From positions 24,210 to 88,209 of the forward strand of contig CAZCGQ010000004.1 in the NCBI GenBank assembly GCA_964498425.1: 64,000 bases of DNA, read 5' to 3'. The notes under the pieces are model-generated. The model was not told where the DNA came from. It worked only from the letters and a program-made list of their open reading frames with translations, and did no database searches. The translations under genes and the position numbers were made by a program. Source of the stretch: an uncultured Gammaproteobacteria bacterium. Lineage in GTDB: Bacteria > Patescibacteriota > Microgenomatia > UBA12405 > JAHJSD01. How positions within the stretch are numbered: the first letter of the stretch is position 1; each line of letters opens with the position of its first letter. Shown here piece after piece: positions 18,591 to 38,907 of this stretch.

Positions 18591-19608
18591 ACTTAATTTA
18601 GAAAACTTTAGAAATTATTCAAGGAAATTTGTCTTTTCTCCCCAATTAAATTTGATTATCGGCCAAAATACTGCTGGTAAAACAAACTTGCTGGAATCAA
18701 TTTTTTTACTTGCCTCAGGTGAAAGCTTTCGAGCAACCAGAAACGAAGAAATGATTCGCTGGGGTGAAAATCTGGCTTTAATTGAAGGTACGGTTAATGA
18801 CGAATTTTTAAAGATAGCTATTCAATCCGACCAAGGTGAAGTAGCCAAGCAGTTTTGGGTAGAAGGGGTTGATAAAAAGAAATCACAGTTAATCAAGCAT
18901 TTTAGTGCGGTGATTTTTCGACCGGAAGATATTCGGATGATTCAGGGTTCTCCCGGACGGCGGCGTGACTTTTTAGACGATGTTTGGTCTAGCTGGAGTT
19001 GGGAATATCAACAACCGTTGATAACTTACAACAAGGCGGTTACACGACGGAATAAGGTTTTGAGAAGAATCCAAGAAGGTCAAGCCAAGAAAGAAGAGCT
19101 TTATTTTTGGTCACAAACCCTCGAAAAAAATGGAGAAATTATTCGTCAGAAAAGAGAAGAATTTATAGACTTCGCCAATCGCTATTGGCAGGATAAAAGA
19201 TCAGAGTTCTCGCATTTGAAAGTGGATTATTTGTCCAGCCCGGTTACGGTTGACCTCCTTGAGGAGAGCTATCAGAAAGATTTGAATATGGGGATTACAA
19301 CCATTGGTCCTCAGCGCGACGACTTTGTTGTTAAAAGTAAGGAATTTGGTGACCAACCTAAAGATGTTGCTACTTGGGGATCACGCGGCCAGCAACGTTT
19401 GGCTACCTTAGCTTTGAAGCTGGCTCAGCTTGCTTTTATCGAAGATCAACAAGGTAAAAAGCCAGCTCTATTGCTGGACGATATTTTTTCCGAGCTTGAT
19501 CAAGACAATCAAGAACTGGTTGTTTCTCTCTTGCCCCGCTACCAGACCTTTCTTACCACTACCGAAGATATCATCGTTCCCTTCCAAGCCGAAGTAATCA
19601 AAATCTAA
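18577..19608 (+). CDS. recF: DNA replication and repair protein RecF
   Basis: MKLNKLNLENFRNY...LIIGQNTAGKTNLLESIFLLASGESFR (Walker A) and C-terminal ALLLDDIFSELD (Walker B/D-loop). The start overlaps the rplY stop. Confidence 0.8.
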   Translation: MKLNKLNLENFRNYSRKFVFSPQLNLIIGQNTAGKTNLLESIFLLASGESFRATRNEEMIRWGENLALIEGTVNDEFLKIAIQSDQGEVAKQFWVEGVDKKKSQLIKHFSAVIFRPEDIRMIQGSPGRRRDFLDDVWSSWSWEYQQPLITYNKAVTRRNKVLRRIQEGQAKKEELYFWSQTLEKNGEIIRQKREEFIDFANRYWQDKRSEFSHLKVDYLSSPVTVDLLEESYQKDLNMGITTIGPQRDDFVVKSKEFGDQPKDVATWGSRGQQRLATLALKLAQLAFIEDQQGKKPALLLDDIFSELDQDNQELVVSLLPRYQTFLTTTEDIIVPFQAEVIKI

Positions 19609-19620
19609 CCCGCACCATAG

Positions 19621-19668
19621 TTCTCGCCGTGCCCGCCAAAACTGGAGTCAAAGGCGACTGTGGATGGG
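19621..19668. repeat. ~48-nt GC-rich repeat element (copy 1), also present at 29686-29734
   Basis: ttctcgccgtgcccgccaaaactggagtcaaaggcgactgtggatggg versus ttctcgctgtgcccgccaaaactggagccaaaggcgactgtgggtgggg (about 94% identity). Confidence 0.6.
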
Positions 19669-22185: not shown

Positions 22186-22263
22186 ATACTATTATATAGC
22201 AGCCTTATCCTACTCCTTTTTCTTAGTTTCTATTCTCTGGTCTCTCCGGCCTTCGGCCGGCTC

Positions 22264-22463: not shown

Positions 22464-23073
22464 TTGCACTTTAACAAGTTATTGATGACGTAATATACCG
22501 TGCATCACATGTGTGTCTTTGACACACGTATTTCTCATGTGCTTTTTGCACATGAAATTAACCGTGTACCCTTTGTGGTACGCGGCCGGAACCCGCCTTT
22601 ATGGCGGGACACAATAATTCTAGTATTAAGGCAAAAGGTGGATACCTAGGTGGCAAGAGCCGAAGAAGGACGTGGTAGGCAGCGAAATATGTCGGGAAGG
22701 TGCCAAACAACCTTTGATCCGGCAGTGTCCGAATGGGGTAACCCACTCCTGTGTAAGCAGGAGGACTCCAACTTTAGTTGGAGAGGTAAGCTGGGGAACT
22801 GAAACATCTTATTACCCAGAGGAAAATAAAATTTCAATGATTCCCTTAGTAGCGGTGAGCGAAAAGGGATTAGCCCAAAGGTCGATTCGTCGACCGGTTG
22901 CAGGGTCCAGCCAAAAAATAATTCTAGCTAGCGGAAAACTTCGGAATAAGTTTCCAGAGAGGGTGAAAGGCCCGTACGCGAAAGCGCGAATTATTTAGGC
23001 GGATTCCTAAGTAGCTCCGACATAATCGGGGTGAATCAGGGGGAACCACTCCTCCAAGGCTAAATACTCTTGC

Positions 23074-23120
<47 letters not shown>

Positions 23121-24599
23121 GGGAGGGGAGTGAAATAGTATCTTGAAACCATTTGCTAACAAACAGAGAGAGTTCCGACCTTGTGTCGAGAATGATCTCG
23201 TGCTTTTTGGAGAACGAGCCGGCGAGTTTTCGTTGACTGCAGGTTTAACCGAGTCTGACTCGGGTAAGCGGAGGGAAACCAAGTTTGAATAGAGCGATAA
23301 GCAGTTAGCGTAAGACCCGAAACCGAGTGATCTAACCATGGGCAGGGTGATCTCTGACGAAAGTCAGGGGGAAGGCCGAACCAGTAGGGGATGCAAACCC
23401 TTTGGATGACCTGTGGTTCGTAGCAATATGCTAATCGTACTCGGAGATAGCTGGCTCTCCCCGAAATATATTTAGGTATAGCGTTCTATTGTCTCTTTCA
23501 GGGGTAAAGCCACTGGATGGGCGCAGGGTAGAAATACCTTGTGCTCAACCAAACTCTGAATACTGGAAGATTAAGTAGAACAAGTCGGTCTGATCGGGCT
23601 AAGCTGATCAGGCGAAAGGGAAAGAACCCAGACTCCCGTATAAGGTCCCTAAGTGTTTGCTAAGTGGCAAAGGAAGTGATTCGCCACAGACAGCCAGGAG
23701 GTTGGCCTAGAAGCAGCCATCCTTTAAAGAAAGCGTAACAGCTCACTGGTCGATGGCGAGTCGCGCCTAAAATTTAACGGGGCTAAGCAAACCACCGAAG
23801 ACGGAGTTCTGTACCATTTGGTGCAGGAGGTAGGGGAGCGTTCCCAGGGCGGTGAAGTCAAATCGTAAGGTTTGGTGGAGCGCTGGGAAGTGAGAATGCC
23901 GGCATAAGTAACTAGAATTCTGGTGAGAATCCGGAACGCCGAAAGCCTAAGGTTTCCAACGCAATGTTCGTCAGCGTTGGGTTAGGCGGGGCCTAACCCG
24001 AGTCCGTCAATTGACGGAGTAGGGGATGGACAGTCAGTTAATATTCTGACCCCACGGCTGTTTCGTTTTACTTAGGGAGTGACGCATTAGGATAAATCGG
24101 GTGGAGTAGTGAAATTGCTCCATTGATCAACCGAGTTAGTTTCAGCAGGCAAATCCGTTGAAATGTTTAAGGCAAGGTTGAACAGAACCCTGACCTTCGG
24201 GTCGTGGGAACTTGATCGATTTCTGATGCCGAGAAAAGCTTCGTAAGGAGAAACAGTTGTGCCCGTACCGCACAACCGACACAGGTAGGCAGGTCGAGTA
24301 GACCAAGGCGCGCGGGAAAAGGGAGGTTAAGGAACTCGGCAAAAAAGCTAGGCGTAACTTTGGGAGATGCCTTCCCTCGAGTTTTCGAGGGCACAGCTAA
24401 CGAGTGTTCGGCGACTGTTTACCAAAAACACAGGTCTCTGCAAACCCGTAAGGGGAAGTATAGGGGCTGAAGCCTGTCCAGTGCCGGAAGGTTAAGGGGA
24501 GTTGTTCGGTCGATTTTTCGACCGGGCGGCGAACTGAAGCCCCGGTGAACGACGGCGGTAACTCTAACCGTCCGAAGGTAGCGAAGTCCATTGTCGGGT

Positions 24600-25304
24600 A
24601 AGTTGGAACGAGCCCGTATTGGCTAATAACGGAAAAGCCCTAATTTAGGTTCAATGGCAACCGTTTTAGGATTAGGGTAATTGCGTGGGAAGTCCCGCAT
24701 CTGCGGGACCCCGTAACGACTTTTTTCGATTTTAATCGAAAAGGATAGATTTTGTGCCTATTTCAAGCTATGCTTAAGTTAGGCAAATCATGAAATCTAT
24801 AACACGCCAGTCACTGCTACAACAGGAATTGAATCCCAATTGGATTACTGGCTTAGTTGATGGTGAAGGATCATTTATGGTTCTTTTTAATCCAAATTCT
24901 AAGTTTAATACCAACTGGGAAGTCCGACCGAGTTTTGCTCTCTCCTTGAAAAAAGCGGATAAAAGTATTCTTTTAAGTTTAAAAGAATATTTTAAGTGTG
25001 GAAGTGTGCGTTTTTGTAAAACTGACTCTACTTACAAGTATGAGGTTAGAAGTTTACAAGATTTGCACTCTAGAGTAATACCACATTTTGATAAATATCC
25101 CCTTTTAATAAAGAGGAAAGAGTTCTTGGTTTTTAGGAAAGTTGTTTTTCTGATGAAGGCTAAAAAGCATTTAATGCCAGATGGTCTGAAAGAAATCTCA
25201 AGATTAGTTGGTTCAATTAATCGCGGGAGGGATAAGAAAAACTTTCCATCGTTGTAATTGGTGAAAGAGATAGTCTGCACCATTGGTAACAATGGAGGTT
25301 TGTG
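24600..25304 (+). mobile_element. Group I intron in 23S rRNA domain IV (insertion site equivalent to about E. coli position 1951) carrying a LAGLIDADG homing-endonuclease ORF
   Basis: Exon junction GUCGGGU|AAGUUCCGACC is restored when 24600-25304 is removed. The 5' exon ends in U and the intron ends in G (group I rule). Its 705-nt length accounts for the oversized 23S. The position was counted from the A2058 region by hand. Confidence 0.6.
24790..25257 (+). CDS. LAGLIDADG-family homing endonuclease (intron-encoded)
   Basis: NWITGLVDGEGSF motif at the N-terminus. 155 aa. Located entirely inside the 23S rRNA intron. Confidence 0.75.
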   Translation: MKSITRQSLLQQELNPNWITGLVDGEGSFMVLFNPNSKFNTNWEVRPSFALSLKKADKSILLSLKEYFKCGSVRFCKTDSTYKYEVRSLQDLHSRVIPHFDKYPLLIKRKEFLVFRKVVFLMKAKKHLMPDGLKEISRLVGSINRGRDKKNFPSL

Positions 25305-26383
25305 AAGTTCCGACCGGTATGAACGGCTTAACGACCGAACAACTGTCTACGACCTCTCACCCGGTGAAATTGAAATACCGGTAAAGATGCCGGTTAGTGA
25401 CGGCAGGACAGAAAGACCCCGTGGAGCTTAACTGAGGCTTAACGTTGGGAAAAATACTTTAATTGTTGAGAATAGGTGGGAGCCTTCGGGCGCCAGTGAA
25501 ATACCACTCTTTGAGGTATTGGACTCTAACCAATGTTCACTGCAAACGTGAACTGGGACGGCGTTTGGTTGTCAGTTTGACTGGGGCAGTCGTCTGCTAA
25601 AAAGTAACGCGGACGTACAAAGGTTGGCTTGGTCCGGCTAGAAATCGGACTGTAAGTATAAAGGCAAAAGCCAGCTTAACTGCGAGACCGACGGGTCGAG
25701 CTTGCAAAGCCACAAATATTTTGTTTGTGGGGATGCAACCGTGTACCTTTGGTACATGGAGGTGCGAAAGCAGGTCTTAATGATCTTCCGTCCCTTGTGG
25801 ATAGGGGCGGGACTTAACGGATAAAAGCTACCCCGGGGATAACAGCGTGGTCGGGCCCGATAGTCCATATTGACGGCTCGGATCGCGACCTCGATGTCGA
25901 CTTGGCGCATCCTGGCCCTGAAGAGGGGGCCAAGGGTTGGTCTGTTCGCCCATTAAAGCGCTGCGTTAGTTGGGTTCAGAACGTCGTAAGACAGTTCGGT
26001 CCATATCCGCCGTCACCGCACGATTTTTGAGAGGAGCTCACTACAGTACGAGAGGACCTAGTGGGAGGAACCTCTGGTGTGCCTGTTGTTCTGTCAAGAG
26101 CATTGCAGGGTAGCCATGTTCCTTCGGGATAACCGCTGAAAGCATCTCAAGCGGGAAGCCCACCTCAAGATAAGAAATCGATGACCGATTTATCGGTCTG
26201 AAGGCCTCCAGGAGACTACTGGTTATAGGTAGGAGGTGGAAGACCAGCAATGGTTTAAGCTGACCTATTCTTATTGGCCGACCTAGAATTTATTTTACAT
26301 CCGGTGCCACGTACCATTCGGTGCATGGCTAGCGTGATGCACTGTATACTATGTCATCAATACTTGTTGAGAGACAAGAAAAT

Positions 26384-26522
26384 CCGAAGCACGAAGCACG
26401 AAATCCGAAACAAATCCTAATATCAAATTATTAAGTTTTAAACATTAGAATTTATAATTTTGAAATTGTTTAGACCAAGTCAGACTTGGTTTCGAGTTTC
26501 GAAATTCAAATTTCGGATTTTT
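26384..26522. repeat. Intergenic repeat-family copies downstream of 23S rRNA (CGAAGCACGAAGCACGAAATCCGAAACAA ... TTTCGAGTTTCGAAATTCAAATTTCGGATTT) plus the ACCAAGTCAGACTTGGT hairpin
   Basis: aaaatccgaagcacgaagcacgaaatccgaaacaa at 26384-26420, hairpin gaccaagtcagacttggtt at 26473-26491, ggtttcgagtttcgaaattcaaatttcggattttt at 26486-26522. Confidence 0.55.
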
Positions 26523-27747: not shown

Positions 27748-28305
27748 GTGACCAAAGCAGGAAATTTACCAAAAGGAAAATACATTCTATACCGCGGCGA
27801 GCCGCGGGAAGTGGTTAAGCGAACTAAGGCCCATCACGGTCGGGGTTCAGCCCAAGCTCGTTTATGGCTGAAAAGTTTAATTTCCGGCAATACAATTCAA
27901 GAAGGTTTTACCGTTGATGAAGAACTAGAAGAGATTGATATCACCTTTCGTTCCGGCCAGTATTTGTATAAGCAGGGCGATACATTTATCTTCATGGACC
28001 AGGAAACCTATCACCAATACGAAGTTGATAAGAAAGTGATTGGTAACGCTGGAAACTATTTAATTGAAGGAGAAAAATATCAGTTAGGAATTTATGATGA
28101 CGAAGTTATTTCAATTCGCCTGCCTCAAAAGGTTGTTTTAGAAATCAAGGAAACAACTGCCGGGGTAAAGGGAAATACTGTTTCCGGTGCAACCAAACCG
28201 GCTGTGCTTGAAACCGGTTTGACTGTAAAAGTTCCGCTTTTTATTAAGCAAGGCGAAAAAATAATCGTCAATACCGACTCCGGCGAATACGTCTCCCGTG
28301 CATAA
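27748..28305 (+). CDS. efp: Elongation factor P (GTG start)
   Basis: KAGNLPKGKYILYRGEPREVVKRTKAHHGRGSAQARLWLKSLISGNTIQEGF with the conserved KxxG modification loop. 185 aa. Confidence 0.85.
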   Translation: MTKAGNLPKGKYILYRGEPREVVKRTKAHHGRGSAQARLWLKSLISGNTIQEGFTVDEELEEIDITFRSGQYLYKQGDTFIFMDQETYHQYEVDKKVIGNAGNYLIEGEKYQLGIYDDEVISIRLPQKVVLEIKETTAGVKGNTVSGATKPAVLETGLTVKVPLFIKQGEKIIVNTDSGEYVSRA

Positions 28306-28406
28306 ATTGTTATCTTTTTTCTCGACCAGCCTTGCCGGCAGGCAGGTCGACGGAAAATAACTTCCTCGTTATGGGATCTTGCATTTAACTTTGATAGAAT
28401 CTGATT
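28263..28406. repeat. Direct repeat copy 1: efp 3' end plus downstream promoter-like intergenic region. It is duplicated at 29620-29784.
   Basis: atcgtcaataccgactccggcgaat...atcttttttctcg ... acggaaaataacttcctcgttatgggatcttgcatttaactttgatagaatct. About 85% identical to copy 2, apart from a swapped 25/47-nt middle segment. Confidence 0.7.
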
Positions 28407-28886
28407 ATGAACAAGAAACCAACGCGAGTTGCTGGGATTGTTATTAAAGACAGCAAAGTTTTGCTGATCAATCGCAAGAAAAACAACAAAGAATACTATG
28501 TTTTCCCTGGCGGAAGTGTAGAAGAAAACGAGACTAAAGAGAAAGCGCTAATTCGGGAACTAAATGAAGAAACAAGTGTTAAGGTCAAAATTGATCGGCT
28601 AGTTTATGTTCACGATTATCAAACCAGCCAGCAGTTCTACTACCTTTGTGATTATCAAGGCGGTCGGCCGCAGTTAGCTGGGGGAAGCATTGAAAAGCAG
28701 CGAATGAAAACAAAACATGACTTTTATCAGCCGGTTTGGATCAGTATTCCCAAATTACCTAAATTACTGTTGTATCCATTGGAAATCCGCGATTGGCTTA
28801 TTGTAGACATTAAAAATGGTTTTCCCAGCGAGCCAAGAAAAGCTAGTTTAAAAATCCCCGATTTGAGGCAGGACTTGGTAGAATAA
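28407..28886 (+). CDS. Nudix hydrolase
   Basis: Nudix box GGSVEENETKEKALIRELNEETSV. Confidence 0.7.
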   Translation: MNKKPTRVAGIVIKDSKVLLINRKKNNKEYYVFPGGSVEENETKEKALIRELNEETSVKVKIDRLVYVHDYQTSQQFYYLCDYQGGRPQLAGGSIEKQRMKTKHDFYQPVWISIPKLPKLLLYPLEIRDWLIVDIKNGFPSEPRKASLKIPDLRQDLVE

Positions 28887-28990
28887 TCCACGAAAATTTA
28901 CATCCTTGGGCTGTCGGACAGAGCTATTCTTACATCATGCGCCTCAAGGCATTTGACAAATCTCCTTACATTTGATAGTATCTCCTTACT

Positions 28991-29239
28991 ATGGTGCAGT
29001 TAGCGACTTTAACCAGCAAAAGGCAATTAACAATACCGGCTGAAATTTTCAGGAAACTGAGGCTAAGAGCTGGCCAAAAACTTATTGTTCGAGAAAAAGA
29101 GGGCGAAATTACTTTAACTCCGGCTTTAAATTTAGTTGAAAATTTAGCTGGTTCAGTAACAGTTCCAGCTAAGTATAAGGGCTTATCTGCTGATAAAATT
29201 ATAGATAGGTCGAAAAAAGATTACTTTTCTAAAAAATGA
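28991..29239 (+). CDS. AbrB/SpoVT-type antitoxin (VapB-like)
   Basis: 82 aa. N-terminal swapped-hairpin motif LTSKRQLTIPAEIFRKLRLRAGQKLIV. Overlaps the downstream PIN gene by 4 nt. Confidence 0.6.
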   Translation: MVQLATLTSKRQLTIPAEIFRKLRLRAGQKLIVREKEGEITLTPALNLVENLAGSVTVPAKYKGLSADKIIDRSKKDYFSKK

Positions 29240-29616
29240 TTTTTGTTGATACCAATTATTTTCTACGTTTACTTTTAAAAGACGTTGATGAACAACATCA
29301 AAAAGCAAAAAAGCTTTTTGAACAAGCCGCTAAAGGAAAAAAACAGGTTTTTACTTCAATAATAGTTTTTTTTGAAATATATTGGGTATTATCTTCATTT
29401 TATGAACAAAATAAAGAAGAAGTGATCTCGATATTAAATAAAATTTTAGCAATGAAATTTATTGAGTTGGAAGAAAGAGATCTGCTTCTAACCGCATTAG
29501 AACTATTTAAAAACGAAAATATTGATCTAGAAGATGCTTATAATTTGGTTTACGCTCGATCCAACGAATCCTCAAAATTTAATACTTTCGACAAAAAGCT
29601 TAAAAGTTTATTTTAA
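29236..29616 (+). CDS. PIN-domain toxin (VapC-like)
   Basis: MIFVDTNYFLRLL N-terminal acidic-residue motif and 126-aa size typical of VapC. ATGA overlap with the antitoxin. Confidence 0.65.
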   Translation: MIFVDTNYFLRLLLKDVDEQHQKAKKLFEQAAKGKKQVFTSIIVFFEIYWVLSSFYEQNKEEVISILNKILAMKFIELEERDLLLTALELFKNENIDLEDAYNLVYARSNESSKFNTFDKKLKSLF

Positions 29617-29619
29617 GAT

Positions 29620-29784
29620 TATCGTCAATACCGACTCCGGCGAATCTGTCTTCAGAGCATAAGTTGTCATCTTTTTTCTCGCTGTGCCCGCCAAAACTGG
29701 AGCCAAAGGCGACTGTGGGTGGGGTATGACGGAAAATAACTTCCTCGTTATGGGATTTTGCACTTAGCTTTGGTAGAATTTCTT
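29620..29784. repeat. Direct repeat copy 2 (degenerate efp 3'-end pseudo-copy plus promoter-like region) carrying the 48-nt GC-rich element at 29686-29734
   Basis: attatcgtcaataccgactccggcgaatctgtcttcagagcataa ... acggaaaataacttcctcgttatgggattttgcacttagctttggtagaattt. It precedes the kinase ATG at 29785 just as copy 1 precedes the Nudix ATG at 28407. Confidence 0.7.
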
Positions 29785-30303
29785 ATGAAAATTTACATCC
29801 TTGGGCCGTCTGCCAGCGGTAAAACAACTCTAGCTAAAAAAATTGCTGAAAAGAAGGATCTTCCAGTATTCCACTCCGACTTTGTATTGACAGAATATAA
29901 TGGGAGGAAACGAAGAAAGCTAGATAAAGAAGACTATATGGAAAAAGTAGAAGATATTTTAGCTAAAGACAAGTGGATTTTTGAAGGCAAGCATATTATT
30001 TCTAGGCTTCTGAATGAGGCTGATCAAATAGTTTGGTTAAAAACACCCTTACTTGTAACCTTGTTTCGACAATGGAAACGGTATTTTACTGATCAGGACC
30101 AACGGAAAAGATTTACTTTTAAAAGCAATCTGCAATTATCAGTCGTAATTATTTGCCAGTATTTATGCTGGGAAGACAAGAGTAAAAAAGACGATCCCAG
30201 ACACTGTCGCCAAAAGAAATATGGTCGGATATTGAGGGAATATAAGGATAAAGTCGTCGAAATTAAAACAGATAAGGATATTGAAGATTTATTTACTATT
30301 TAA
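29785..30303 (+). CDS. P-loop NTPase / small-molecule kinase (adenylate-kinase / FlaR-like fold)
   Basis: MKIYILGPSASGKTTLAKKIAE Walker A at the extreme N-terminus, about 170 aa. The start is placed at the internal ATG at 29785. Confidence 0.5.
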   Translation: MKIYILGPSASGKTTLAKKIAEKKDLPVFHSDFVLTEYNGRKRRKLDKEDYMEKVEDILAKDKWIFEGKHIISRLLNEADQIVWLKTPLLVTLFRQWKRYFTDQDQRKRFTFKSNLQLSVVIICQYLCWEDKSKKDDPRHCRQKKYGRILREYKDKVVEIKTDKDIEDLFTI

Positions 30304-31306
30304 TTGCATCCTGAAAGGCCTGATTGAATTCCTTAATTGATTTATGTCTGTCCTCGGGGTTTTTGCTCAGCCCTTTACGCAGAACCTTTGAAATCTTTTT
30401 TCTTTGTTTCTCTGATAATCGCTCTAAATAATCCTCCCGAAATGGAATTTGATCAATTTGATCTTTTTCAAACTCTTCACGTGTACAGTATGTTTCAAAT
30501 TCGTTTTCTGTGCCGACGAAAATTGCAAAAATGGTTGCGGCTAAGCCGTATACGTCTGTTTGGATAGTTAAGGCGTTGAAGTCTGTACCCTTTTGTTCTG
30601 GAGCTGCGTAGTGATAGGTTCTTGCGTAACTGTTTACGGTGGTTCCATTTTCGCTTAGCTGTATAGCGAGTTCAAAATCAATTAATTTAGGATTGAATTC
30701 ACTATCAAGCCCAATATTAAGAGGCTTCATATCGGCATATACCAATTTTCTTTTGGTATGGATATTGGTTAAAGCAGAGGAAATTTTATCTATTATTTCG
30801 CCGACTTCTTCAATTGAATGCGGTTCTTCAGCCCAAGTTTGAATCGTTTCATTTGGCAGGTACTCCATGATTAAATAAATTTGTCCTGCAGATGTTACAG
30901 CAAGATCATAAATTGTGGCAATGTACGGGTGTTGTTCAACTCCGGCATAATGTCCCTCTTGAGGAATATTCATCGCTGTCCACCAACCAGAACCGGCCTT
31001 TTTCCAGTCGCCTCCCTTAGCAATCAATTTCCGGCCGATCTTTTTATCTCTAACTACTGTAATATGTTCTGGCAGTTCTATTTCCTCTTCGCCAACTTCA
31101 GAATATCTCGGATCGTCTGTTTTCGGTTCATAAAACATCTGGCGGTCTTTCCCGTCAACATCTCGGAAAGAAATCACTTTTTTACCAGGATTTTTTCTTA
31201 TCCACTCTAAAGAATTTACTTCTTCATCTGTTGGAGTTACTTTTATTTCAAAAAGTTCAAGTGGAGTTTTTTGCAGTTCTTCCTTTTCCGTAGATTGCTC
31301 GGGCAT
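30296..31306 (-). CDS. Atypical Hanks-type Ser/Thr protein kinase-like protein (possible pseudokinase)
   Basis: Kinase subdomains LIMEYLP (hinge), YADMKPLNI (catalytic loop with HRD replaced by YAD), DFE (DFG variant) and YAAPE. N-terminal 100 aa of unknown function. The 3' end overlaps the convergent P-loop kinase gene by 8 nt. Confidence 0.5.
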   Translation of the reverse strand: MPEQSTEKEELQKTPLELFEIKVTPTDEEVNSLEWIRKNPGKKVISFRDVDGKDRQMFYEPKTDDPRYSEVGEEEIELPEHITVVRDKKIGRKLIAKGGDWKKAGSGWWTAMNIPQEGHYAGVEQHPYIATIYDLAVTSAGQIYLIMEYLPNETIQTWAEEPHSIEEVGEIIDKISSALTNIHTKRKLVYADMKPLNIGLDSEFNPKLIDFELAIQLSENGTTVNSYARTYHYAAPEQKGTDFNALTIQTDVYGLAATIFAIFVGTENEFETYCTREEFEKDQIDQIPFREDYLERLSEKQRKKISKVLRKGLSKNPEDRHKSIKEFNQAFQDAIK

Positions 31307-31335
31307 GAATTAATTATACCAAGGGGAAAAAGTTT

Positions 31336-31710
31336 TTAATCATACCGGGGTTGGTTGTTGAACTTTGTTAAGTCAACAATTGGCAGTTTATTACCGTCGG
31401 GGTCTTCAATAACAGCACACATTCCCGACCGGATTTCGAACGGCTTCATAACAATGCTGTAGTCTTTTTTCCGATGTTTTTTGACAAAATCATCTACATT
31501 ATCTACTAAAAAATTGAAGTCAGGATTTGGCAAAGATTTGTCGTTATGAATAACAATTTCAGAATCATCGTTTTCAAAAACGAAACCAATCATCTTTCTT
31601 TCTTCATCTGTCCAAGCCTTATTCAACCCCAATACCTCTTCATAAAACTCCGATGATTTTTCCAAATCCTCAACATAAAACATAATATTGTCAATTTTCT
31701 TTAATTTCAT
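31336..31710 (-). CDS. VOC-family (glyoxalase/bleomycin-resistance fold) protein
   Basis: MKLKKIDNIMFYVEDLEKSSEFYEEVLGL, typical VOC N-terminal beta-alpha-beta-beta-beta start. The start is taken at the internal Met at 31710. Confidence 0.5.
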   Translation of the reverse strand: MKLKKIDNIMFYVEDLEKSSEFYEEVLGLNKAWTDEERKMIGFVFENDDSEIVIHNDKSLPNPDFNFLVDNVDDFVKKHRKKDYSIVMKPFEIRSGMCAVIEDPDGNKLPIVDLTKFNNQPRYD

Positions 31711-31712
31711 GG

Positions 31713-32093
31713 CTAGTTGGCCTTTAATAGTTTTTTGTCTAATGTGTAAAGTGGATATTTGGTATCTAAGTGTAGTTGCAGGTAACAAGCGTCATAAATT
31801 GATAACCCTTTTTCCAAAGCGAGTTTGGCTACTTTCTTCAAATTAAAGTCATAGACATATTCAATATTTTTTAAGTTCTCAAAAGTTTTAATTATTTTGA
31901 ACAGTTTATGCTTGGAAATTCTTTGTGACCCTAGAGCATATCTAAGTGCATTAGTAACTTCCAAACTAAAAATATAAGGCTCTACTAATTTAATTTTTCC
32001 CTCTTTAAATTGGCGAACAATTTCCTGACTGAGTTTTTCATCGGGGAGCAAGTAAGATAGAAAGAAGCTGGCATCGAAAATAGCCTGTTTCAT
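31713..32093 (-). CDS. PIN-domain toxin (VapC-like)
   Basis: MKQAIFDASFFLSYLL...LSIYDACYLQL, 126 aa. Overlaps the upstream RHH gene by 1 nt. Confidence 0.65.
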   Translation of the reverse strand: MKQAIFDASFFLSYLLPDEKLSQEIVRQFKEGKIKLVEPYIFSLEVTNALRYALGSQRISKHKLFKIIKTFENLKNIEYVYDFNLKKVAKLALEKGLSIYDACYLQLHLDTKYPLYTLDKKLLKAN

Positions 32094-32332
32094 TATAGTC
32101 TTCCTTTTTTGATGTAGCCTTCCAAGTTATCTTTATCCATAATTACGTTTTCCTTTACCTCATCTAATTGCTCATAGAAGGCGGTATTATTTTCCTTTTT
32201 TCTTAATTTAGATAAGTAATTTCTAACCGCTTCGTTCACTAGTGCAGATAAACTCTTTTCCCTTTTGGCGGCAATTACCTTTAAGGATTTTAAATAGTTT
32301 TGGTTTAAGGCTATAGTTGTTCTCTTTTGCAT
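32093..32332 (-). CDS. Ribbon-helix-helix (CopG/VapB-like) antitoxin
   Basis: 79 aa. RTTIALNQNYLKSLKVIAAKREKSLSALVNEAVRNYL (beta strand plus two helices). Confidence 0.5.
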   Translation of the reverse strand: MQKRTTIALNQNYLKSLKVIAAKREKSLSALVNEAVRNYLSKLRKKENNTAFYEQLDEVKENVIMDKDNLEGYIKKGRL

Positions 32333-32410
32333 AAAGTCATCTTATCATCAAGGTGCGTTGATGTCAATGGCTCTTTCGTTAAGCTTAATATCCTCAATTA
32401 ACAGATATTA

Positions 32411-33028
32411 ATGTTAAAATATCTCATGAAAAGACTTGTATTGTTTTCTAATCCAACCGATGAGATTATTAATGATTTACTGGAACTAATCTTTCCGGAT
32501 GATATTGAGAATAAAGTTGCCGCCTATATGCCCAGTGACGGGGCAAACTTAAAAGAAAAATATATTAATCAATGGAAAGAATATGCTCAAAAAAGAAAAG
32601 CAAAATTTGTTTTAATTGACAACTCACAAAGGGGCGATGCCGCTAAAAAAGAAGCCGAAAAAGTTCTTGAAGCGGATATTTTAATTATCACCGGCGGCAA
32701 CACTTTTACCTTAATGAACCATCTCCGGCAGTCGGGCTTGGATAAAACTATCAAAGAATTTGTTAAGAAAGACAATTTTGTTTTAGCTGGATTCAGTGCT
32801 GGAGCAATTGTTTTAACGCCGACAATTGCCACCTCGGCAATTAAAAATTACGATAAAAATGAGGTTGGGTTAGAAAATCTAACTGGGGTAGATCTAGTTG
32901 ATTTTGAGTTTTTTGCTCACTATGCCCCGAAATGGGAAAAAGCCATTTCGGAATACGAAAAAACAACTGAAAATGAGGTTAAAAAACTCACCGACGAAGA
33001 TTATTTAGTAATTGATTTAGAAGCTTAG
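32411..33028 (+). CDS. Peptidase S51 (dipeptidase E / cyanophycinase-like) family protein
   Basis: ADILIITGGNTFTLMNHLRQSGLDKTIKEFVKKDNFVLAGFSAGAIV (nucleophile Ser in GFSAG). Confidence 0.6.
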   Translation: MLKYLMKRLVLFSNPTDEIINDLLELIFPDDIENKVAAYMPSDGANLKEKYINQWKEYAQKRKAKFVLIDNSQRGDAAKKEAEKVLEADILIITGGNTFTLMNHLRQSGLDKTIKEFVKKDNFVLAGFSAGAIVLTPTIATSAIKNYDKNEVGLENLTGVDLVDFEFFAHYAPKWEKAISEYEKTTENEVKKLTDEDYLVIDLEA

Positions 33029-33211
33029 ATCATGGATTATTCAAAAGGTTTCGGATAACGCCTCCCGTCCTCAAAAAAATCTGGGGATAAGTTAGCACCC
33101 GCCCGTTGTAAGTATACAAAATTTATTACTTCTAATGGATGAAACAAGCCAAACAGTCTAATGATACGAATCATTAGACTATTTATATGTCCTTTCTTAT
33201 AAATCGATCCG

Positions 33212-33937
33212 TTATTTTTTTACAACAGAATCAATAAATTCCCTAGCGGTATCTCTTAGTTTCTTGACATATGGGTTTTGGCCTTCATATCTCCATCCAG
33301 CATTAAGTAAATCCTGGACCTCATTGGGGTTTATTTTAGATTTAAGTAACGAAAAATCTTGTCTATCTTTGATTCTCGACGTAACCCACATCGGAAAAAT
33401 ATTAAATGGCATTTTTCTTGAACTGAAAATAGCTCCGTGCTTAAGCAGGTATAATGCTTCTTTCGTAAAGGTAGGAAAAGAGGCATTGCCTAAATTTCCC
33501 CTACCTTCCAGTGCTTGTTTGGGAATAAAAAGATTTCCGTCGAGGGCTTCAATTGGGAGGCGAAAAATGTTTTCATCCTCTTCATAAATTACTCCTAAAT
33601 CGATCTCAGTTTCATCTTCGTGGATTAGTCGAGTTGCATCATCTTTTACCCACTTTAATTTTTCTTTAATTTCCTCTTCAGTGGGTTCCCGATAGTCAAG
33701 GTTAATTAAACGTTGTTTTGCATCTTCGAAAACTTCTCTAGAGATTACCCAAATATCCAAATCGTCATGGGGTCTTGTTTCGGTTCCTAAAACTCCATCT
33801 ACAGCCACACCACCAAAATAGAAGTGAGGTATATCGAAAAGATTTTGCTCTACCTCTTTTATGTGTTGTACCAGTAATCGATTTTCTGGGTATTTCGGGG
33901 TTAGGGGTTGCGGTTGGCTTTCGCGACCTTCAGACAT
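33212..33937 (-). CDS. ANT(2'')/AadB-like nucleotidyltransferase-family protein
   Basis: FYFGGVAVDGVLGTETRPHDDLDIWV aligns well with AadB LWIGGGWAIDARLGRVTRKHDDIDLTF. The function here is unknown. Confidence 0.5.
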   Translation of the reverse strand: MSEGRESQPQPLTPKYPENRLLVQHIKEVEQNLFDIPHFYFGGVAVDGVLGTETRPHDDLDIWVISREVFEDAKQRLINLDYREPTEEEIKEKLKWVKDDATRLIHEDETEIDLGVIYEEDENIFRLPIEALDGNLFIPKQALEGRGNLGNASFPTFTKEALYLLKHGAIFSSRKMPFNIFPMWVTSRIKDRQDFSLLKSKINPNEVQDLLNAGWRYEGQNPYVKKLRDTAREFIDSVVKK

Positions 33938-33980
33938 ATTGGTAATTTATTATAACTGATTATTATTATAGAATTGGATA

Positions 33981-34970
33981 ATGAAACTTACAAAAGTTAA
34001 AACGGTTGAGATTGTTCCATCTTTTCCGTTTGATTTTGATTCGACTTTTCATAAACCGGATCATTTTACGTCTGGGGACAACGAATGGCAACCGGGAATT
34101 CGTTGGCAAACCTGGAGACATAACGATAAATGCTTAGGGCTGAAGTTTGTCAACCAGGGTGTGGTTGATAAACCAAAGATTAAAGTTGAAATTTACAGCG
34201 ATTCAGAAATTAACAAAGAAGATACAGCGGCTTTAATCGATGAAATTAAGTATCGATATAATCTTAATCTAGATTTAACCGATTTTTATAATCAGTTTAA
34301 AGACGAGAAAACGCTTGGGCCAATAATTAAAAAGTGGCGGGGAATGCGGCCGGGACATCCGAGCTCTCTTTATGAATACTTGATTATTGGAGTTGTTTTG
34401 CAAAATGCCACTGTTGCCCGGTCGGTCCAGATGTTTACTGCCCTTCTTGAAAATTACGGCACCTTACTGGAATTTGACAAAAAAAACCTGCCTCGCCGTA
34501 AGGCTGGGTTGTGGTGTTTTTGGGAAGAAGGTGGTTTGCAAGAAGCAACCGAAGAGGATTTAAGAGCTTTAAAGGTTGGTTATCGGGCCAAGAGAATAAA
34601 AAAAATTGACGACCATTTTTTCAACGGAAAAATTAATGAATTTGATTTACGCCAAAAAGATTTGGAAACGCAAAAAGAAATCCTTCTTGATATTTACGGC
34701 GTTGGTCCGGCAACAGTTTGGTATTTGCTTTTTGACGTTTTTCACCATTGGGATCACTTTGACCATGTTTCGCCCTGGGAGCAGAAAATATATTCAAAGT
34801 TATTTTTTGACCAAGACCCGGACGACCCCGTTCCAGTAGAAAAAATATTAAAACATTTTGAAAAGTACGGTGACTACAAGCAACTTGCCGTTCACTATAT
34901 TTGGGAAGACCTCTGGTGGCGGCGCAAGAATAAGGACATCGCCTGGCTGGAGAAGTTAATTAGGATTTAA
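33981..34970 (+). CDS. HhH-GPD superfamily DNA glycosylase (OGG/AlkA-like)
   Basis: HhH-GPD motif ILLDIYGVGPATVWYLLFDVF... with a catalytic Asp region downstream. 329 aa. Confidence 0.6.
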   Translation: MKLTKVKTVEIVPSFPFDFDSTFHKPDHFTSGDNEWQPGIRWQTWRHNDKCLGLKFVNQGVVDKPKIKVEIYSDSEINKEDTAALIDEIKYRYNLNLDLTDFYNQFKDEKTLGPIIKKWRGMRPGHPSSLYEYLIIGVVLQNATVARSVQMFTALLENYGTLLEFDKKNLPRRKAGLWCFWEEGGLQEATEEDLRALKVGYRAKRIKKIDDHFFNGKINEFDLRQKDLETQKEILLDIYGVGPATVWYLLFDVFHHWDHFDHVSPWEQKIYSKLFFDQDPDDPVPVEKILKHFEKYGDYKQLAVHYIWEDLWWRRKNKDIAWLEKLIRI

Positions 34971-35036
34971 TAATTTTTGACAACCTAGTATTTTACGTAT
35001 ATAATTTAAATAATTTGAAAGTTAAATTTTCAAACA

Positions 35037-35309
35037 ATGCAACAAAAAGATCAAAATCAAGAAAACTGGCTTAAGGTTTTAGACCGGGGAATGGTAACTA
35101 TTCCCAAAAAGTGGCGGGATGAATTGGCTATCAAGCCTGGTCAAGTATTGAAGGCCAAAAAGCAGGGCCAAAAAATTATTATTGAGCCGAAAGATAAACC
35201 AGCACCTTATCGCGTTTATAGCCAGGAAGAGCTATCTGATTTTGTAGCCAGAGATGCCCTGCCCGAAGATTTGCAAAAGAAAATTGACGATAAATTGAAA
35301 AATGACTAA
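35037..35309 (+). CDS. AbrB/SpoVT-type antitoxin
   Basis: GMVTIPKKWRDELAIKPGQVLKAKKQGQKIIIEP swapped-hairpin motif. 8-nt overlap with the downstream PIN gene. Confidence 0.55.
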   Translation: MQQKDQNQENWLKVLDRGMVTIPKKWRDELAIKPGQVLKAKKQGQKIIIEPKDKPAPYRVYSQEELSDFVARDALPEDLQKKIDDKLKND

Positions 35310-35730
35310 GTTATTTCTTGATGCTTCAGTACTTTTTTCTGCACTTAATTCTAAAGTTGGAGGTTCTCGGCAAATAATTCGTTTAGCCAAACACGGCAAA
35401 GTGTTTGTTGTCACCAGTCAGTTAGTGATTGAAGAGGTTATCCGGAATTTAGATAAAATTGATAATCTGAGCTATGATGACTTCTACAGCTTTTTAGCTG
35501 AAACGCCAATGATTATCCGTGAGCAGATCACAGAAACCGAAATTGAGCCATTTTTAGATTTAGTTGTGGAAAAAGATGCCCATGTTATTGCTGGTGCGGT
35601 TTTGACGGACTGCGATTATTTAGTTACTTTAGACCTCAAACATTTATACAATCCGGAAATCAAGGAAAAGGTAAAAGAAGTAGAAATAGTTACTCCAAGA
35701 GTTTACTTAGAAAAATTTGTTAATTCTTAA
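35302..35730 (+). CDS. PIN-domain toxin
   Basis: MTKLFLDASVLFSAL ... TLDLKHL. 142 aa. Confidence 0.6.
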   Translation: MTKLFLDASVLFSALNSKVGGSRQIIRLAKHGKVFVVTSQLVIEEVIRNLDKIDNLSYDDFYSFLAETPMIIREQITETEIEPFLDLVVEKDAHVIAGAVLTDCDYLVTLDLKHLYNPEIKEKVKEVEIVTPRVYLEKFVNS

Positions 35731-35735
35731 ATTTA

Positions 35736-36116
35736 ATGAAGAAAAAGTTAGGTAAAAAGGCATTTGAACTAGCAAAAAGCTCTTTTGGAGAATTGATTGT
35801 CGGTCTTGCATTTGGAAAGTTCAGCGGTCTTTTGCCAGTCAAGAAAATCAAAGAAACCAAAAAAGTTATTGCCTTTTGGCATCCAAAGCCGTTTTACGAA
35901 AAACACATCCTGATTGTCCCCAAAAAGCCAATTAAGAAGTTAACTTCCTTGCAAGAAAAAGACATGAAATATATTAATGAGATTTTTAGAGTTGCCAGAG
36001 AAATTATTGAGGAGTTGGGTTGGGAAAAAACTGGCTATACTCTTTTGGCCAACGGTGGCAGCCGACAAAAAATCGCCCAATTGCATTTCCACTTAGTCAG
36101 TGGAGAGGAATTGTAG
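35736..36116 (+). CDS. HIT-family (histidine triad) hydrolase
   Basis: C-terminal histidine triad QLHFHLVSG and the HIT-like core HILIVPKKPIKKLTSL. Confidence 0.6.
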   Translation: MKKKLGKKAFELAKSSFGELIVGLAFGKFSGLLPVKKIKETKKVIAFWHPKPFYEKHILIVPKKPIKKLTSLQEKDMKYINEIFRVAREIIEELGWEKTGYTLLANGGSRQKIAQLHFHLVSGEEL

Positions 36117-36138
36117 AATATTTTGATAAAATAGAATT

Positions 36139-36414
36139 ATGACGAAAATAGACAAAGATTTTCGAAAAAAATTTGTGGTTATTGTTCAAACCGGGGCGTT
36201 AACGTTTGACCGGAAATACGACAAACGGATGGCTCACCACGTTGTTGATATGGCGATGAAAATTCCGGATGAGTTGTTTTCAGATGAAAGGCTGACTGCC
36301 TACAACTATGCCTGCGACCTCCTCGACTTTGAATACGGCTTATTTGACGCGGCAGACGAAGAATATCCGGAATGGATAAAAAAGTATTTCAAATGGAAAA
36401 GGAAAGATTTGTAG
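36139..36414 (+). CDS. Hypothetical small protein
   Basis: 91-aa ORF inside a tight same-strand gene array. No recognisable motif. Confidence 0.3.
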   Translation: MTKIDKDFRKKFVVIVQTGALTFDRKYDKRMAHHVVDMAMKIPDELFSDERLTAYNYACDLLDFEYGLFDAADEEYPEWIKKYFKWKRKDL

Positions 36415-36451
36415 TGGTGGTCTTTTATACAACTTCATTGTATAATGAATC

Positions 36452-38536
36452 ATGCGGTTGTCGGAGACGTCACAGAAAATACTCTCGGTCTTTTTTGGTC
36501 ACCCGGGTGACCAGCTTTATGTCAATGAGTTGATCCGCAAAACCGGTCTTTATCCCAACTCCGTTTCCCAATCCCTAAAAACGCTCGAAAAACAAAACAT
36601 TCTCGCCTCCGTCAAAAAAGGCAGAAAGAAATTTTACTTTGTCAACGATAAACATGACCATCTGGAAGAAATCAAATCGATAGTTGGAGTAAAAAAAATC
36701 CAAACGGGGCAGGGTAAATGGGAGCGCTTATTGGGGAGAAAATCGGCAATGGTTCTAGCTTATGCGATCCAAAAGGCCTATCTTGATTATTTGAAAACGT
36801 TGGATATTGAATCCGAAATCAATCACTTTTGGTACAACGATGTGACCTCAGGTGTTTACTTATATCCGTTGGAAATCAGGAGTGTGGGACAGGAAATTGC
36901 CAAGAAACTTAGAAATGATATTGGTTTTGCCCGGGAAATAATTGACAAATGCCGTGACAGCTGCCGGATACTAATAAATGCAACGGAAGATATCACCAAC
37001 TTGGATTTGCCGAACCTGACCAAGAAAGAATTATCTAGTTTATTAAAGGAAATAGATCACAAGTATTGTAACGTAACCAGATTTATGCTTATCCCGCATG
37101 CAATTGAAAGAGACCTCTTTAACGAAGTGAAAAATGAAATAAAAAAAACGCTCGACAAGAAGGGCAAAAAGAAGAAATTTAAGAAATACTTAGAGATACT
37201 AACTGAACCGGTAAGTTTAGAGTTTGAAGAAAGAAAAGAAGCTCTTAAGGTAGCAGCTAAGTTTAAAAAACAAGGCTTGACGGATGAAGTTAAAAGCTTG
37301 ATCCAAGAGCACGGGAACAATTATTGCTGGCTTCCACTTTTTGATAACCGGGCCGAGCCTTTATCGTATGAATATTTTGAGAACCAAATAGAACTTTTAG
37401 CGGAAAAAGAAGCAAACCCTCTTAGAGAAATTTCTCGAATTGAAAAAATTGAAGAAAAGAAAGAAAAGGCACTGAAAAAGGTTTTTGAAAAAATAGAGGT
37501 CGATAGTCACTTTAGAACGATAGTTAATTTACTTCAAAAATATATTGTTTTGCGAACTACTCGGCGGGATGCAATCGCCAAGGCTAATTATCACATTTTA
37601 CCCCTGCTCCATGAGTTGGCTGAACGCATGGAGTTAGATGAAGCAGAAGTAAAACTTCTTTGCTTTGATGAACTTTTGAGTTGGCTTAAACATGGTTATG
37701 GAAAAAAGTTTGGTTATCGTCAGGAAACCTTGGAAGACGAGATTGATAGAAGAAAACAGGGATGGGCGGTTTTGTTTAAAAACAAGCGGTTAACGATAAT
37801 TTCCGGCATAACCAAAATAATTGAGGCGATAGAGCAGAATCAAATAATTGCTGAAACACCGAGTGTCAAAAAAAGGTTAAAAGGCAACCCGGCCTGTCGC
37901 GGTGAAATAGTCGGAAACGTGAAGATAGTTACCCAGTTATCAGAATTGGATAAAGTTGAAGAGGGCGATATCCTGGTTGCCAAAATGACGACGCCAGATT
38001 ATATGTCAGCAATTGGCAAAGCCGCCGGGATAGTTACCGATGAGGGAGGAGTAACTTGTCATGCGGCTATTGTTTCCCGGGAGTTTAATATTCCTTGTGT
38101 TGTGGCAACAAAGAATGCAACCCAGATACTAAGTGATAATGATTTGGTCCAAGTTGATGCAAACAAAGGTGTTATTCGAGTCATGGAATCAGCTGATTAC
38201 CCGCAGGATATCAAAGAAATATTTGGTAAAACTATTTACGAAGGGAAGGTTCGCGGGAAAGCGAGAATTATCTTGGACTCATCAGATTTTGAAAAAGTGA
38301 AAGACGGTGATATTTTAATTGCTCCGCAGACAACACCGGAGTATTTGTCGTCGCTTTATCGGGTTAAGGGGTTTGTTGTTGACGAAGAGTCGCTGACTTC
38401 ACACGCCGCTTTATACGGTCAGGCGTTAAAACTCCCTTCAATCATGGGAACAGAGTTCGCCCGGAATGCCATCGAAGATGGCGAACTTGTTGAGCTCAAC
38501 GCCACCAAAGGTTTCCTCAAACGCCTGAAAAAATAG
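36452..38536 (+). CDS. Winged-helix HTH protein fused to a PEP-synthase/PPDK-like N-domain and two tandem PEP-utilising-enzyme mobile (swivel phosphohistidine) domains
   Basis: N-terminal wHTH (LYVNELIRKTGLYPNSVSQSLKTLEKQNIL). Two swivel-domain signatures: GGVTCHAAIVSREFNIPCVVAT and SLTSHAALYGQALKLPSIMGT. No PEP-binding TIM barrel is present. Confidence 0.55.
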   Translation: MRLSETSQKILSVFFGHPGDQLYVNELIRKTGLYPNSVSQSLKTLEKQNILASVKKGRKKFYFVNDKHDHLEEIKSIVGVKKIQTGQGKWERLLGRKSAMVLAYAIQKAYLDYLKTLDIESEINHFWYNDVTSGVYLYPLEIRSVGQEIAKKLRNDIGFAREIIDKCRDSCRILINATEDITNLDLPNLTKKELSSLLKEIDHKYCNVTRFMLIPHAIERDLFNEVKNEIKKTLDKKGKKKKFKKYLEILTEPVSLEFEERKEALKVAAKFKKQGLTDEVKSLIQEHGNNYCWLPLFDNRAEPLSYEYFENQIELLAEKEANPLREISRIEKIEEKKEKALKKVFEKIEVDSHFRTIVNLLQKYIVLRTTRRDAIAKANYHILPLLHELAERMELDEAEVKLLCFDELLSWLKHGYGKKFGYRQETLEDEIDRRKQGWAVLFKNKRLTIISGITKIIEAIEQNQIIAETPSVKKRLKGNPACRGEIVGNVKIVTQLSELDKVEEGDILVAKMTTPDYMSAIGKAAGIVTDEGGVTCHAAIVSREFNIPCVVATKNATQILSDNDLVQVDANKGVIRVMESADYPQDIKEIFGKTIYEGKVRGKARIILDSSDFEKVKDGDILIAPQTTPEYLSSLYRVKGFVVDEESLTSHAALYGQALKLPSIMGTEFARNAIEDGELVELNATKGFLKRLKK

Positions 38537-38550
38537 CCGTGTGATAGAAT

Positions 38551-38868: not shown

Positions 38869-38907
38869 ATAGACTATTACAAAAGTCAATAAGGTAAAAT
38901 GTAAATT

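Follow-up and report, generated by a model that had tools for sequence, protein, structure and literature searches.

Directly behind efp, the gene of elongation factor P, the stretch of 64,000 nt that we analysed from contig CAZCGQ010000004.1 (positions 24,210 to 88,209; called the window below and numbered from its first letter) appears to carry two nested recombination scars at an accessory-gene hotspot, a reading to which we assign a probability of roughly 0.6. The first scar is a vapBC toxin-antitoxin (TA) pair that is bracketed by copies of the efp tail, and the second is a junction at which two variants of the locus would have been joined. Observed directly are the anatomy of the locus, the conservation of its units in relatives and a divergence of the tail copies that preserves their coding. 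The features involved are the following.

27748-28305, plus strand: efp (elongation factor P), intact, with a GTG start (Pfam EFP_N, EFP and Elong-fact-P_C).
28258-28324, plus strand: R1, boundary repeat copy 1, consisting of the functional efp tail (last 14 codons and stop) and 19 nt, 87% identical to 29615-29681.
28325-28348, plus strand: H1, a short 24-nt GC hairpin at the centre of copy 1 (fold -20.1 kcal/mol, z = -3.3).
28349-28406, plus strand: B, copy 1 of a putative intergenic leaderless promoter, with the extended -10 TGATAGAAT at 28392-28400, 6 nt before the Nudix ATG.
28407-28886, plus strand: Nudix hydrolase gene (Pfam NUDIX, 2.5e-14).
28887-28926, plus strand: dead kinase 5' stub, with ACG at 28890-28892 in place of ATG and then 34 more nt.
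28927-28943, no strand: unassigned filler where the stub meets the vapBC cassette in an illegitimate junction.
28944-28990, plus strand: vapB promoter and putative operator, with -35 TTGACA at 28953-28958 and -10 TAGTAT at 28976-28981.
28991-29239, plus strand: vapB antitoxin gene (AbrB/MazE fold; Pfam MazE_antitoxin, 1e-8).
29236-29616, plus strand: vapC PIN-domain toxin gene (Pfam PIN, 7.7e-15, above the curated cut-off).
29615-29681, plus strand: R2, the displaced efp tail (encoding IIVNTDSGESVFRA and a stop) and 19 nt, beginning at the vapC stop codon.
29682-29727, plus strand: H2, the full-length 46-nt GC-rich element at the centre of copy 2 (repeat unit 29676-29723).
29728-29784, plus strand: B', copy 2 of the putative leaderless promoter, with TGGTAGAAT at 29771-29779, 5 nt before the kinase ATG.
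29785-30303, plus strand: P-loop kinase gene (adenylate-kinase/FlaR-like), intact (Pfam AAA_18, AAA_33 and Cytidylate_kin, all below the curated cut-offs).
19621-19668, plus strand: second full-length copy of the GC-rich element, downstream of recF.

Read from 5' to 3', the order is efp, R1, H1, B, Nudix, kinase stub, 17 nt of filler, vapB promoter, vapB, vapC, R2, H2, B' and kinase, and the Nudix, VapBC and kinase proteins are ordinary members of known families. A first-pass annotation of this DNA had described a direct duplication of the efp 3' end with its downstream intergenic region (IGR), at about 85% identity; this duplication is confirmed here, as a product of recombination. In pairwise alignment, block 1 (28258-28324 versus 29615-29681) is identical at 58 of 67 positions (87%) and block 2 (28349-28400 versus 29728-29779) at 48 of 52 (92%), which sums to 106 of 119 (89%) and lies near the earlier figure. 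Block 1 contains the final 45 nt of efp, stop included, and 19 nt beyond, and block 2 ends in TTTG(A/G)TAGAAT, 5-6 nt ahead of the ATG of the Nudix gene in copy 1 and of the P-loop kinase gene in copy 2; both rank among the longest direct repeats of the window. A third repeat, which bears the kinase stub and was missing from the earlier annotation, connects 28875-28926 with 29770-29821 at 79% identity.

An exact look-up of EF-P had no match, probably owing to a differently called start. Scans of genomes and metagenome contigs with efp were dominated by spirochaete EF-Ps and yielded one close locus each (L003 and L090, with EF-P proteins 83-96% identical to that of the window); the informative loci were recovered via homologues of the kinase and of VapC. 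Six kinds of efp-downstream locus were found among these relatives. The three closest VapC homologues (L086, L087 and L170, with 81, 79 and 73% protein identity) all occur in the order efp, vapB, vapC, and in all three a second efp tail follows immediately after the vapC stop. The homology to these cassettes and to that of L088 begins at about 28944, the position of the junction between vapC stop and R is the same in all five lineages (the window, L086, L087, L170 and L088), and the repeats that flank vapBC lie 720-723 nt apart in L086, L170 and L088. Among 165 loci with an efp 3' end, a second such end was found only in L086, L087, L170 and the window's own contig, and it is absent from the other 161. 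A filled and an empty site can also be compared: behind its efp-vapBC-R unit, L086 continues with the first 29 nt of the hairpin that follows efp in L084, identical up to the contig end. More distant VapC homologues (61% identical, L172-L175) lie in a TA cluster beside lon with no flanking gene-tail repeat, so that the association with efp is limited to VapC homologues of at least 73% identity.

The most complex arrangement is an array in L088/L089 (L088 1-2405) with three TA cassettes in mixed orientation and three detected copies of the efp tail, and the L088 contig begins with GAGCGTAA, by eye the last bases of a probable fourth copy. Its order is a MazE/PIN pair, R_a (decayed), vapBC, R_b (a shortened tail), a Nudix fragment to the middle of which R_b is fused, a minus-strand PIN/RHH pair, whose orthologue in the window lies at 31728-32368, and finally R_c, which is complete and encodes IVVNTDSPEYISRA and a stop. 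Here the left boundary of R (ATY-ATC/GTC-GTC...) recurs behind a different cassette on the opposite strand.

The window's own module is an ordinary type II VapBC module, which has a PIN toxin, an upstream AbrB/MazE antitoxin whose stop overlaps the vapC start by 4 nt (ATGA, 29236-29239), its own promoter with repeated operator-like motifs, a base composition richer in AT than its flanks (GC 0.31-0.36 versus 0.39-0.41) and a location in a variable region together with other PIN genes; only the bracketing by efp tails differs. The acidic quartet of VapC is intact, with D5, E47 and D100 invariant and D119 at least 90% conserved among 16 homologues. In a promoter scan the vapB promoter reached 10/12 with a TG extension, in the arrangement TTGACA-17-TAGTAT. 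Repeats of ATCTCCTTAC lie at 28960-28969 and 28980-28989 within the promoter region, and both TCCTTAC motifs as well as TTGACA are invariant across the five lineages; the TCCTTAC repeats are plausibly the VapB operator. Scans of viral contigs contained neither relatives of VapC nor the efp-tail sequence.

The displaced tails have diverged in a manner that keeps the encoded peptide. In L086, displaced and functional tail differ at 12 of 45 nt and in 2 of 15 codons (P about 1e-4, randomisation), the peptide of R_c in L088 is preserved with P = 0.0005-0.018 against every functional tail, and for the displaced copy of the window P is 0.0004-0.049. A neutral copy has 45 free sites, a functional tail roughly a dozen synonymous ones. 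As the displaced tails keep the EF-P C-terminus, they are a poor fit to the neutral decay of a target that was duplicated in situ, and by their sequences they look like formerly functional gene ends. Displaced tails that preserve their coding are what one expects when DNA integrates into a gene's 3' end and replaces it. The Arg codon is AGA in R2 and in the displaced copy of L086, and CGN in all functional efp ends. R1 and R2 are identical over the first 27 nt from ATCGTC, including the AAT codon that is specific to the window, and lineage-specific variants are likewise common to the R1/R2 pairs of the other lineages (AAT in the window, ACT in L087, CGG in L170 and CCACC in L088). Together with the identical stretches (23-27 nt in the window and L170, at least 24 nt in L087), these variants indicate an exchange between the R copies.

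For the first scar we propose that the vapBC cassette entered by recombination inside the efp tail. The incoming DNA would have brought a replacement tail, and the former tail would have moved to the 3' side of vapC. R brackets a self-promoted vapBC of 0.7 kb wherever the cassette adjoins efp. The exchange may have been a RecA-type homologous recombination on the 45-55 nt shared, or it may have used a site-specific recombinase acting in trans.

The evidence for the second scar begins at the 3' end of the Nudix gene, where the last codons, TTGGTAGAATAA (28875-28886), double as the native -10 box of the kinase gene, and this creates a microhomology of 10 nt between the start and the end of the Nudix gene. 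Next come TCC and the beginning of the kinase gene (ACGAAAATTTACATCCTTGGGCTGTCGG...), in which ATG has changed to ACG. The stub agrees with the kinase start at 29785-29821 in 31 of 37 positions, and window 28876-28917 is 93% identical to the kinase start of L084. In L083 and L090 the order is S1, efp, a short IGR, Nudix and kinase, with no vapBC and no repeat; their Nudix genes are orthologues of the window's, the same GAATAATCCATG junction is present, and Nudix stop and kinase ATG meet at (G/A)TAGAATAATCCATG. As Nudix and kinase are contiguous in these two loci and a kinase stub is kept behind the window Nudix, the Nudix-kinase adjacency is the older one. Both proteins have their hallmark motifs: the Nudix box GX5EX7REUXEEXGU is near-canonical in the translation (G-SVEEN-E-TKEKALI-RELNEETSV, with all catalytic positions present and Ser for the last Gly), and the Walker A motif of the kinase reads GPSASGKTT. 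Kinase homologues occur in varied gene contexts; in L085 an IGR similar to H1 and B is followed by an APH-family gene and then by the kinase.

The two kinds of locus thus exist apart, as X-type (L083 and L090) and Y-type (L086, L087 and L170), and a single junction suffices to connect them in the window, which makes the joining of two variants the simplest history. The older efp-IGR-Nudix-kinase and an efp-vapBC-R-IGR-kinase variant would have been joined head to tail by one non-homologous junction, from kinase codon 13 or nt 37 (28926) to the DNA that immediately precedes the vapB promoter (28944). The route may have been an unequal exchange between co-existing variants or, equally, the integration of a circle (R-IGR-Nudix-stub-vapBC) through R. 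The outcome would be three independent transcription units, in which Nudix is expressed from promoter copy 1 and vapBC from its own TTGACA/TAGTAT promoter with the TCCTTAC repeats, while the kinase, cut from its native start region (now the dead stub after Nudix), would have come to lie behind promoter copy 2 and kept its expression. The order of these events, the recombination mechanism and the functions of promoters and operator we infer from the comparison of loci. Two relatives show recombination at this locus directly: a patch of 250 nt across the end of Nudix and the beginning of the kinase gene (L083 1391-1640) has 27 differences between L083 and L090, the 1.2 kb before it, including efp, are identical, and identity resumes after it, so that the patch looks like an imported recombination tract.

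That the duplicated IGR is promoter-like, as had been noted at first pass, fits the genome's standard leaderless layout. We surveyed the 48 open reading frames (ORFs) of the window that start with ATG and encode 120 aa or more. A TANNNT hexamer whose end lies exactly 5-6 nt ahead of the ATG is present in 18 of them, as opposed to about 1-2 for other offsets; the TG extension is present in 10 of those 18, and a core similar to a Shine-Dalgarno sequence in 2 of the 48. The -10 spacing of B and B' matches this survey, by which they would be typical leaderless promoters of this genome. The same arrangement recurs in relatives, where TTTGATAGAAT precedes the Nudix ATG in L083 or the APH ATG in L085 with a 6-nt spacer, and the same -10 motif also lies ahead of the kinase in L084 and L171. 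Elsewhere in the window, one and the same string, TATATAATAGTAT, stands directly ahead of the ATG in three unrelated genes (2679-2691, minus strand; 16801-16813, plus strand; 22186-22198, minus strand).

Between the two blocks of each copy lies a GC-rich centre. The earlier annotation had stated that the centre of copy 1 was replaced in copy 2 by an element that also occurs downstream of recF. The recurrence is clear, as 29676-29723 and 19621-19668 agree in 45 of 48 positions (94%) and the latter copy starts 13 nt 3' of a RecF/SMC_N-family ORF (18505-19608); the direction was probably the reverse, given that L003 has the long form. H2 is homologous to L003 at about 4762-4812, 3' of efp, the stem halves of H1 align with the same long element (13 of 17 in the 3' half, counted by eye), and L085 carries a short form similar to H1. 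With the long form directly 3' of efp in L003 and the stem halves of H1 alignable to it, the long form is probably ancestral and copy 1 the deleted one, and H1 is by its sequence probably an internally deleted form that has lost the loop. Since H2 is closer to the recF copy than to L003, a conversion between dispersed copies is possible. No occurrence of the element's core is expected by chance (100 shuffles), and nhmmer found only three full-length copies in all sequence searched. The element has no match in Rfam at E up to 10 over 28200-29850 and none at the Rfam gathering threshold near 19621. The consensus fold of the three copies has one compensatory pair only, which is weak support for a hairpin, and no U-tract follows the stem on either strand; as a guess, the element might be terminator-like or similar to a repetitive extragenic palindromic (REP) sequence.

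Several observations weigh against the history with two nested scars. No integrase, Phage_integrase match or transposase is present among the 21 window ORFs scanned, and the six-frame translation of the 64-kb window contains no tyrosine-recombinase motif (H-x-L-R-H type); a recombinase gene was not found in the window. No close relative (above about 90% nt identity) was found, and the parental variants are deduced from distant lineages whose efp is 75-86% identical in nucleotides. The Y-type contigs stop shortly after R2, and for the IGR and kinase behind it one has to argue from the hairpin that L086 has in common with L084. The kinases nearest to the stub are those of the window and L084 rather than the X-type ones, so that these affinities do not separate two donors. 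The divergence of vapBC between lineages is similar to that of efp, and the distances among four taxa are star-like; a long vertical co-inheritance with gene conversion is therefore possible as opposed to repeated mobility. H1 and H2 diverge more than their flanks and require an extra event, either a deletion or a conversion from the recF copy. Finally, a putative efp-end remnant to the left of the vapB promoter, i.e. the filler (28927-28947) as a third copy of the tail, is not significant (P = 0.07, local alignment versus shuffles), and this assignment was rejected.

The best of the competing explanations is an in-situ tandem duplication, from efp(-45) to kinase(+37), of an ancestor with the order efp-vapBC-R-IGR-Nudix-kinase, after which vapBC would have been lost from copy 1 and Nudix from copy 2, the latter by a deletion between two TTGRTAGAAT -10 motifs. 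L088 indeed shows that the order vapBC-R-(IGR)-Nudix once existed, the 10-nt TTG(A/G)TAGAAT before the Nudix ATG and at the Nudix stop provides the microhomology for the deletion, and B and B' are closest to each other (92%, versus about 75% to L085). However, this history takes three events in place of one illegitimate junction. The loss of vapBC by recombination of R1 with R2 in the identical 27 nt would have left efp with the AGA tail, whereas efp has the CGT type. Moreover, H1 (short) and H2 (long and similar to the recF copy) are not simple copies of each other, and the spacer TTCTT between the -10 and the kinase ATG in copy 2 is unlike either parental spacer. We consider the tandem duplication unlikely.

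It is improbable that a single Nudix-VapBC module was inserted between efp and kinase and created or carried along the second upstream copy, as the first-pass annotation had proposed. Parts of that proposal stand, namely the duplication, the promoter-like IGR and the adjacency of efp and kinase with no Nudix-VapBC block, which the comparison with relatives revealed in L084 (efp, hairpin, GTGGTAGAATAATCC, ATG of the kinase, membrane protein, pyrG, radA); the repeats also do bracket Nudix and vapBC. What does not stand is the joint arrival of Nudix and VapBC and, probably, the direction of the central replacement. Nudix and kinase are contiguous with no vapBC in L083 and L090, vapBC with R stands separately beside efp in L086, L087 and L170 and within an array in L088, and the kinase stub between Nudix and vapBC already contradicts the model. 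Even L084 may be a reduced locus, as a short stretch with AGGC ahead of its kinase -10 is, by eye, similar to the last part of the Nudix gene, and a glyoxalase remnant is present. The kinase orthologue of L084 (124-637) is itself broken into two ORFs of 60 and 119 aa, probably by a frameshift, with the glyoxalase-gene remnant following it; the split kinase and this remnant make the minimal locus look reduced and not ancestral.

Very improbable, in our view, is that the tail copies are what is left of tandem efp paralogues in which TA genes took the place of the gene bodies. This would explain why the displaced tails preserve the EF-P peptide, but the R copies that follow three different cassettes, on both strands, have the same left boundary (ATY-ATC-GTC codons) in L088 and other loci, as many as four R copies lie within 2.4 kb, and no relative among the 165 efp loci has a second full or half efp. 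An assembly chimera of two co-occurring strains at shared repeats is hardly credible: the locus is rich in repeats and several related contigs end at R or H, but the junction of stub and filler is unique sequence and not a shared k-mer, and window 28103-29713 and 29694-31373 are each matched at 100% by a Logan contig of run SRR15425351, the two contigs having a 20-nt overlap that includes one copy-2-specific base. As one of them covers efp, R1, H1, B, Nudix, stub, filler, vapBC, R2 and half of H2, all junctions are reproduced by an independent assembly and the structure is not an assembly artefact.

Among known systems, the proposed entry of vapBC into the efp tail can first be compared with prophage 21 and e14, which integrate inside the coding 3' end of E. 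coli icd with their own integrase and a duplicated end of about 165 nt. The icd 3' end that they bring differs from the native one mostly at synonymous positions, and the latter persists, displaced, as a pseudo-fragment on the far side. The efp locus is alike in that the 3' end of an essential gene would have been replaced and the old end displaced; it differs in the length of the duplicated end (45-55 nt) and in an insert of no more than a vapBC pair. The proposed joining of the variants has a parallel in homology-facilitated illegitimate recombination or unequal crossing-over, in which one homologous side and one non-homologous junction lead to a head-to-tail duplication. The window junction 28926/28944 is of this kind, with the difference that donor and recipient variants are here only inferred.

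Decayed integrative elements of streptococci, the cis-mobilizable elements (CIMEs) and microCIMEs, are flanked by att repeats at the 3' end of housekeeping genes and undergo tandem accretion (PMC7563491). Like them, the efp cassettes are small recombinase-free elements that are bracketed by direct repeats of the target gene's 3' end, and such bracketing was found in the window, L086, L087, L170 and L088. The tandem stacking separated by repeats in the L088 array and the empty and filled sites among relatives are further likenesses. The efp cassettes differ in their size of about 0.7 kb, in their content of a TA pair only, in their host from the candidate phyla radiation (CPR), in the efp target and in that the exchange may be purely homologous; an integrase or a related integrase-bearing element for them was found neither in the 64 kb nor in the short contigs of the relatives. 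With integron cassette arrays the efp array has in common small accessory cassettes, often TA pairs, that stand in line behind a fixed anchor with a recurring site-like repeat. It differs in that R is a piece of a coding gene with no attC-like symmetry, in that the cassettes have their own promoters and in their mixed orientation (L088). An integron array was rejected as a candidate, as the repeats lack attC symmetry, neither IntI nor a tyrosine-recombinase motif was found in the window, and the cassettes are self-promoted. The target-site duplication of a transposon or insertion sequence (2-15 bp) was rejected as well, because the repeat has 45-55 nt or more and its copies differ mostly at synonymous positions; neither a transposase among the ORFs scanned nor terminal inverted repeats at the locus were found.

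In the literature we found no report of efp as an integration site, nor of gene-tail-bracketed TA cassettes in CPR bacteria. What is unusual here is that bare TA cassettes are bracketed by coding-preserving tails of an essential gene, in several CPR lineages and in one array. A bolder idea, which we regard as doubtful at present, is that the efp tail serves as the attachment site of an undescribed class of minimal mobile cassettes in Microgenomates. Such a cassette would be a bare TA pair of about 0.7 kb with its own promoter and a copy of the last 14 efp codons. It would loop out, re-insert by RecA or by a recombinase in trans and replace the tail each time, so that arrays of TA pairs and fossil tails accrue in an integron-like manner with neither attC nor IntI.

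The host looks like a Microgenomates-type CPR bacterium. The nearest named efp loci belong to Microgenomates and Shapirobacteria, and one VapC homologue is annotated as Curtissbacteria. The 23S rRNA gene of the window (22616-26292, 3677 nt) is 90-95% identical to that of L003 (CAYXSV010000017.1), and both have the synteny of S1 and efp; with a window that is CPR-like, the title "uncultured Gammaproteobacteria bacterium" of L003 is therefore probably wrong. An insertion of about 700 nt in the 23S gene (about 24604-25305) is absent from the 23S of L003; it weakly matches a group I intron, and its ORF at 24790-25257 encodes a homing endonuclease of the LAGLIDADG type (Pfam 4.7e-22). 16S and 5S genes were not found in the 64-kb window.

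L003, the nearest species representative (EF-P 83% identical), has the order efp, long GC element, HIT, membrane protein, pyrG and radA, with about 0.6 kb between efp and the membrane protein gene. In the window the counterpart of this membrane protein lies at 41251, 13 kb further on, which marks 28306-41250 as a variable region. It contains three PIN genes and genes for a Ser/Thr kinase, a glyoxalase, a peptidase S51, a HIT protein, a PEP-utiliser protein and MazG, along with several ORFs that have no Pfam match. Other Microgenomates (L006 and L009) have a convergent gene right behind efp and no hotspot.

Two further repeat families were seen in the window. A family of 78-nt repeats (17213-17290, 26369-26446 and 61355-61432), of the form ..CGAAGCACGAAGC.CGAA...CGAAACAA.. 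and 68-72% identical, occurs just upstream of the tmRNA gene, between the 23S and S1 genes and near 61.4 kb. A 31-nt palindromic repeat, TTGTAGGGACAAT..TAGGATTGTCCCT, lies at gene boundaries at 56858-56888, 58618-58648 and 60567-60597, with distances of about 1.8-1.9 kb.

Annotators should flag the pseudo-efp fragment and the dead kinase stub of this locus, as well as the GC element, a repeat at which assemblies break. CPR bacteria or Patescibacteria have small genomes with few recognisable mobile elements, and their exchange of accessory genes is poorly understood; the locus behind efp is a sequence-level example of it. It would represent a hotspot at which self-promoted leaderless cassettes (Nudix, APH, kinase and TA pairs) are swapped between relatives, and at which the duplication of a promoter may have rescued a displaced kinase gene. 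If it is true that the efp-tail repeats are attachment sites, they would define a new minimal integration system.

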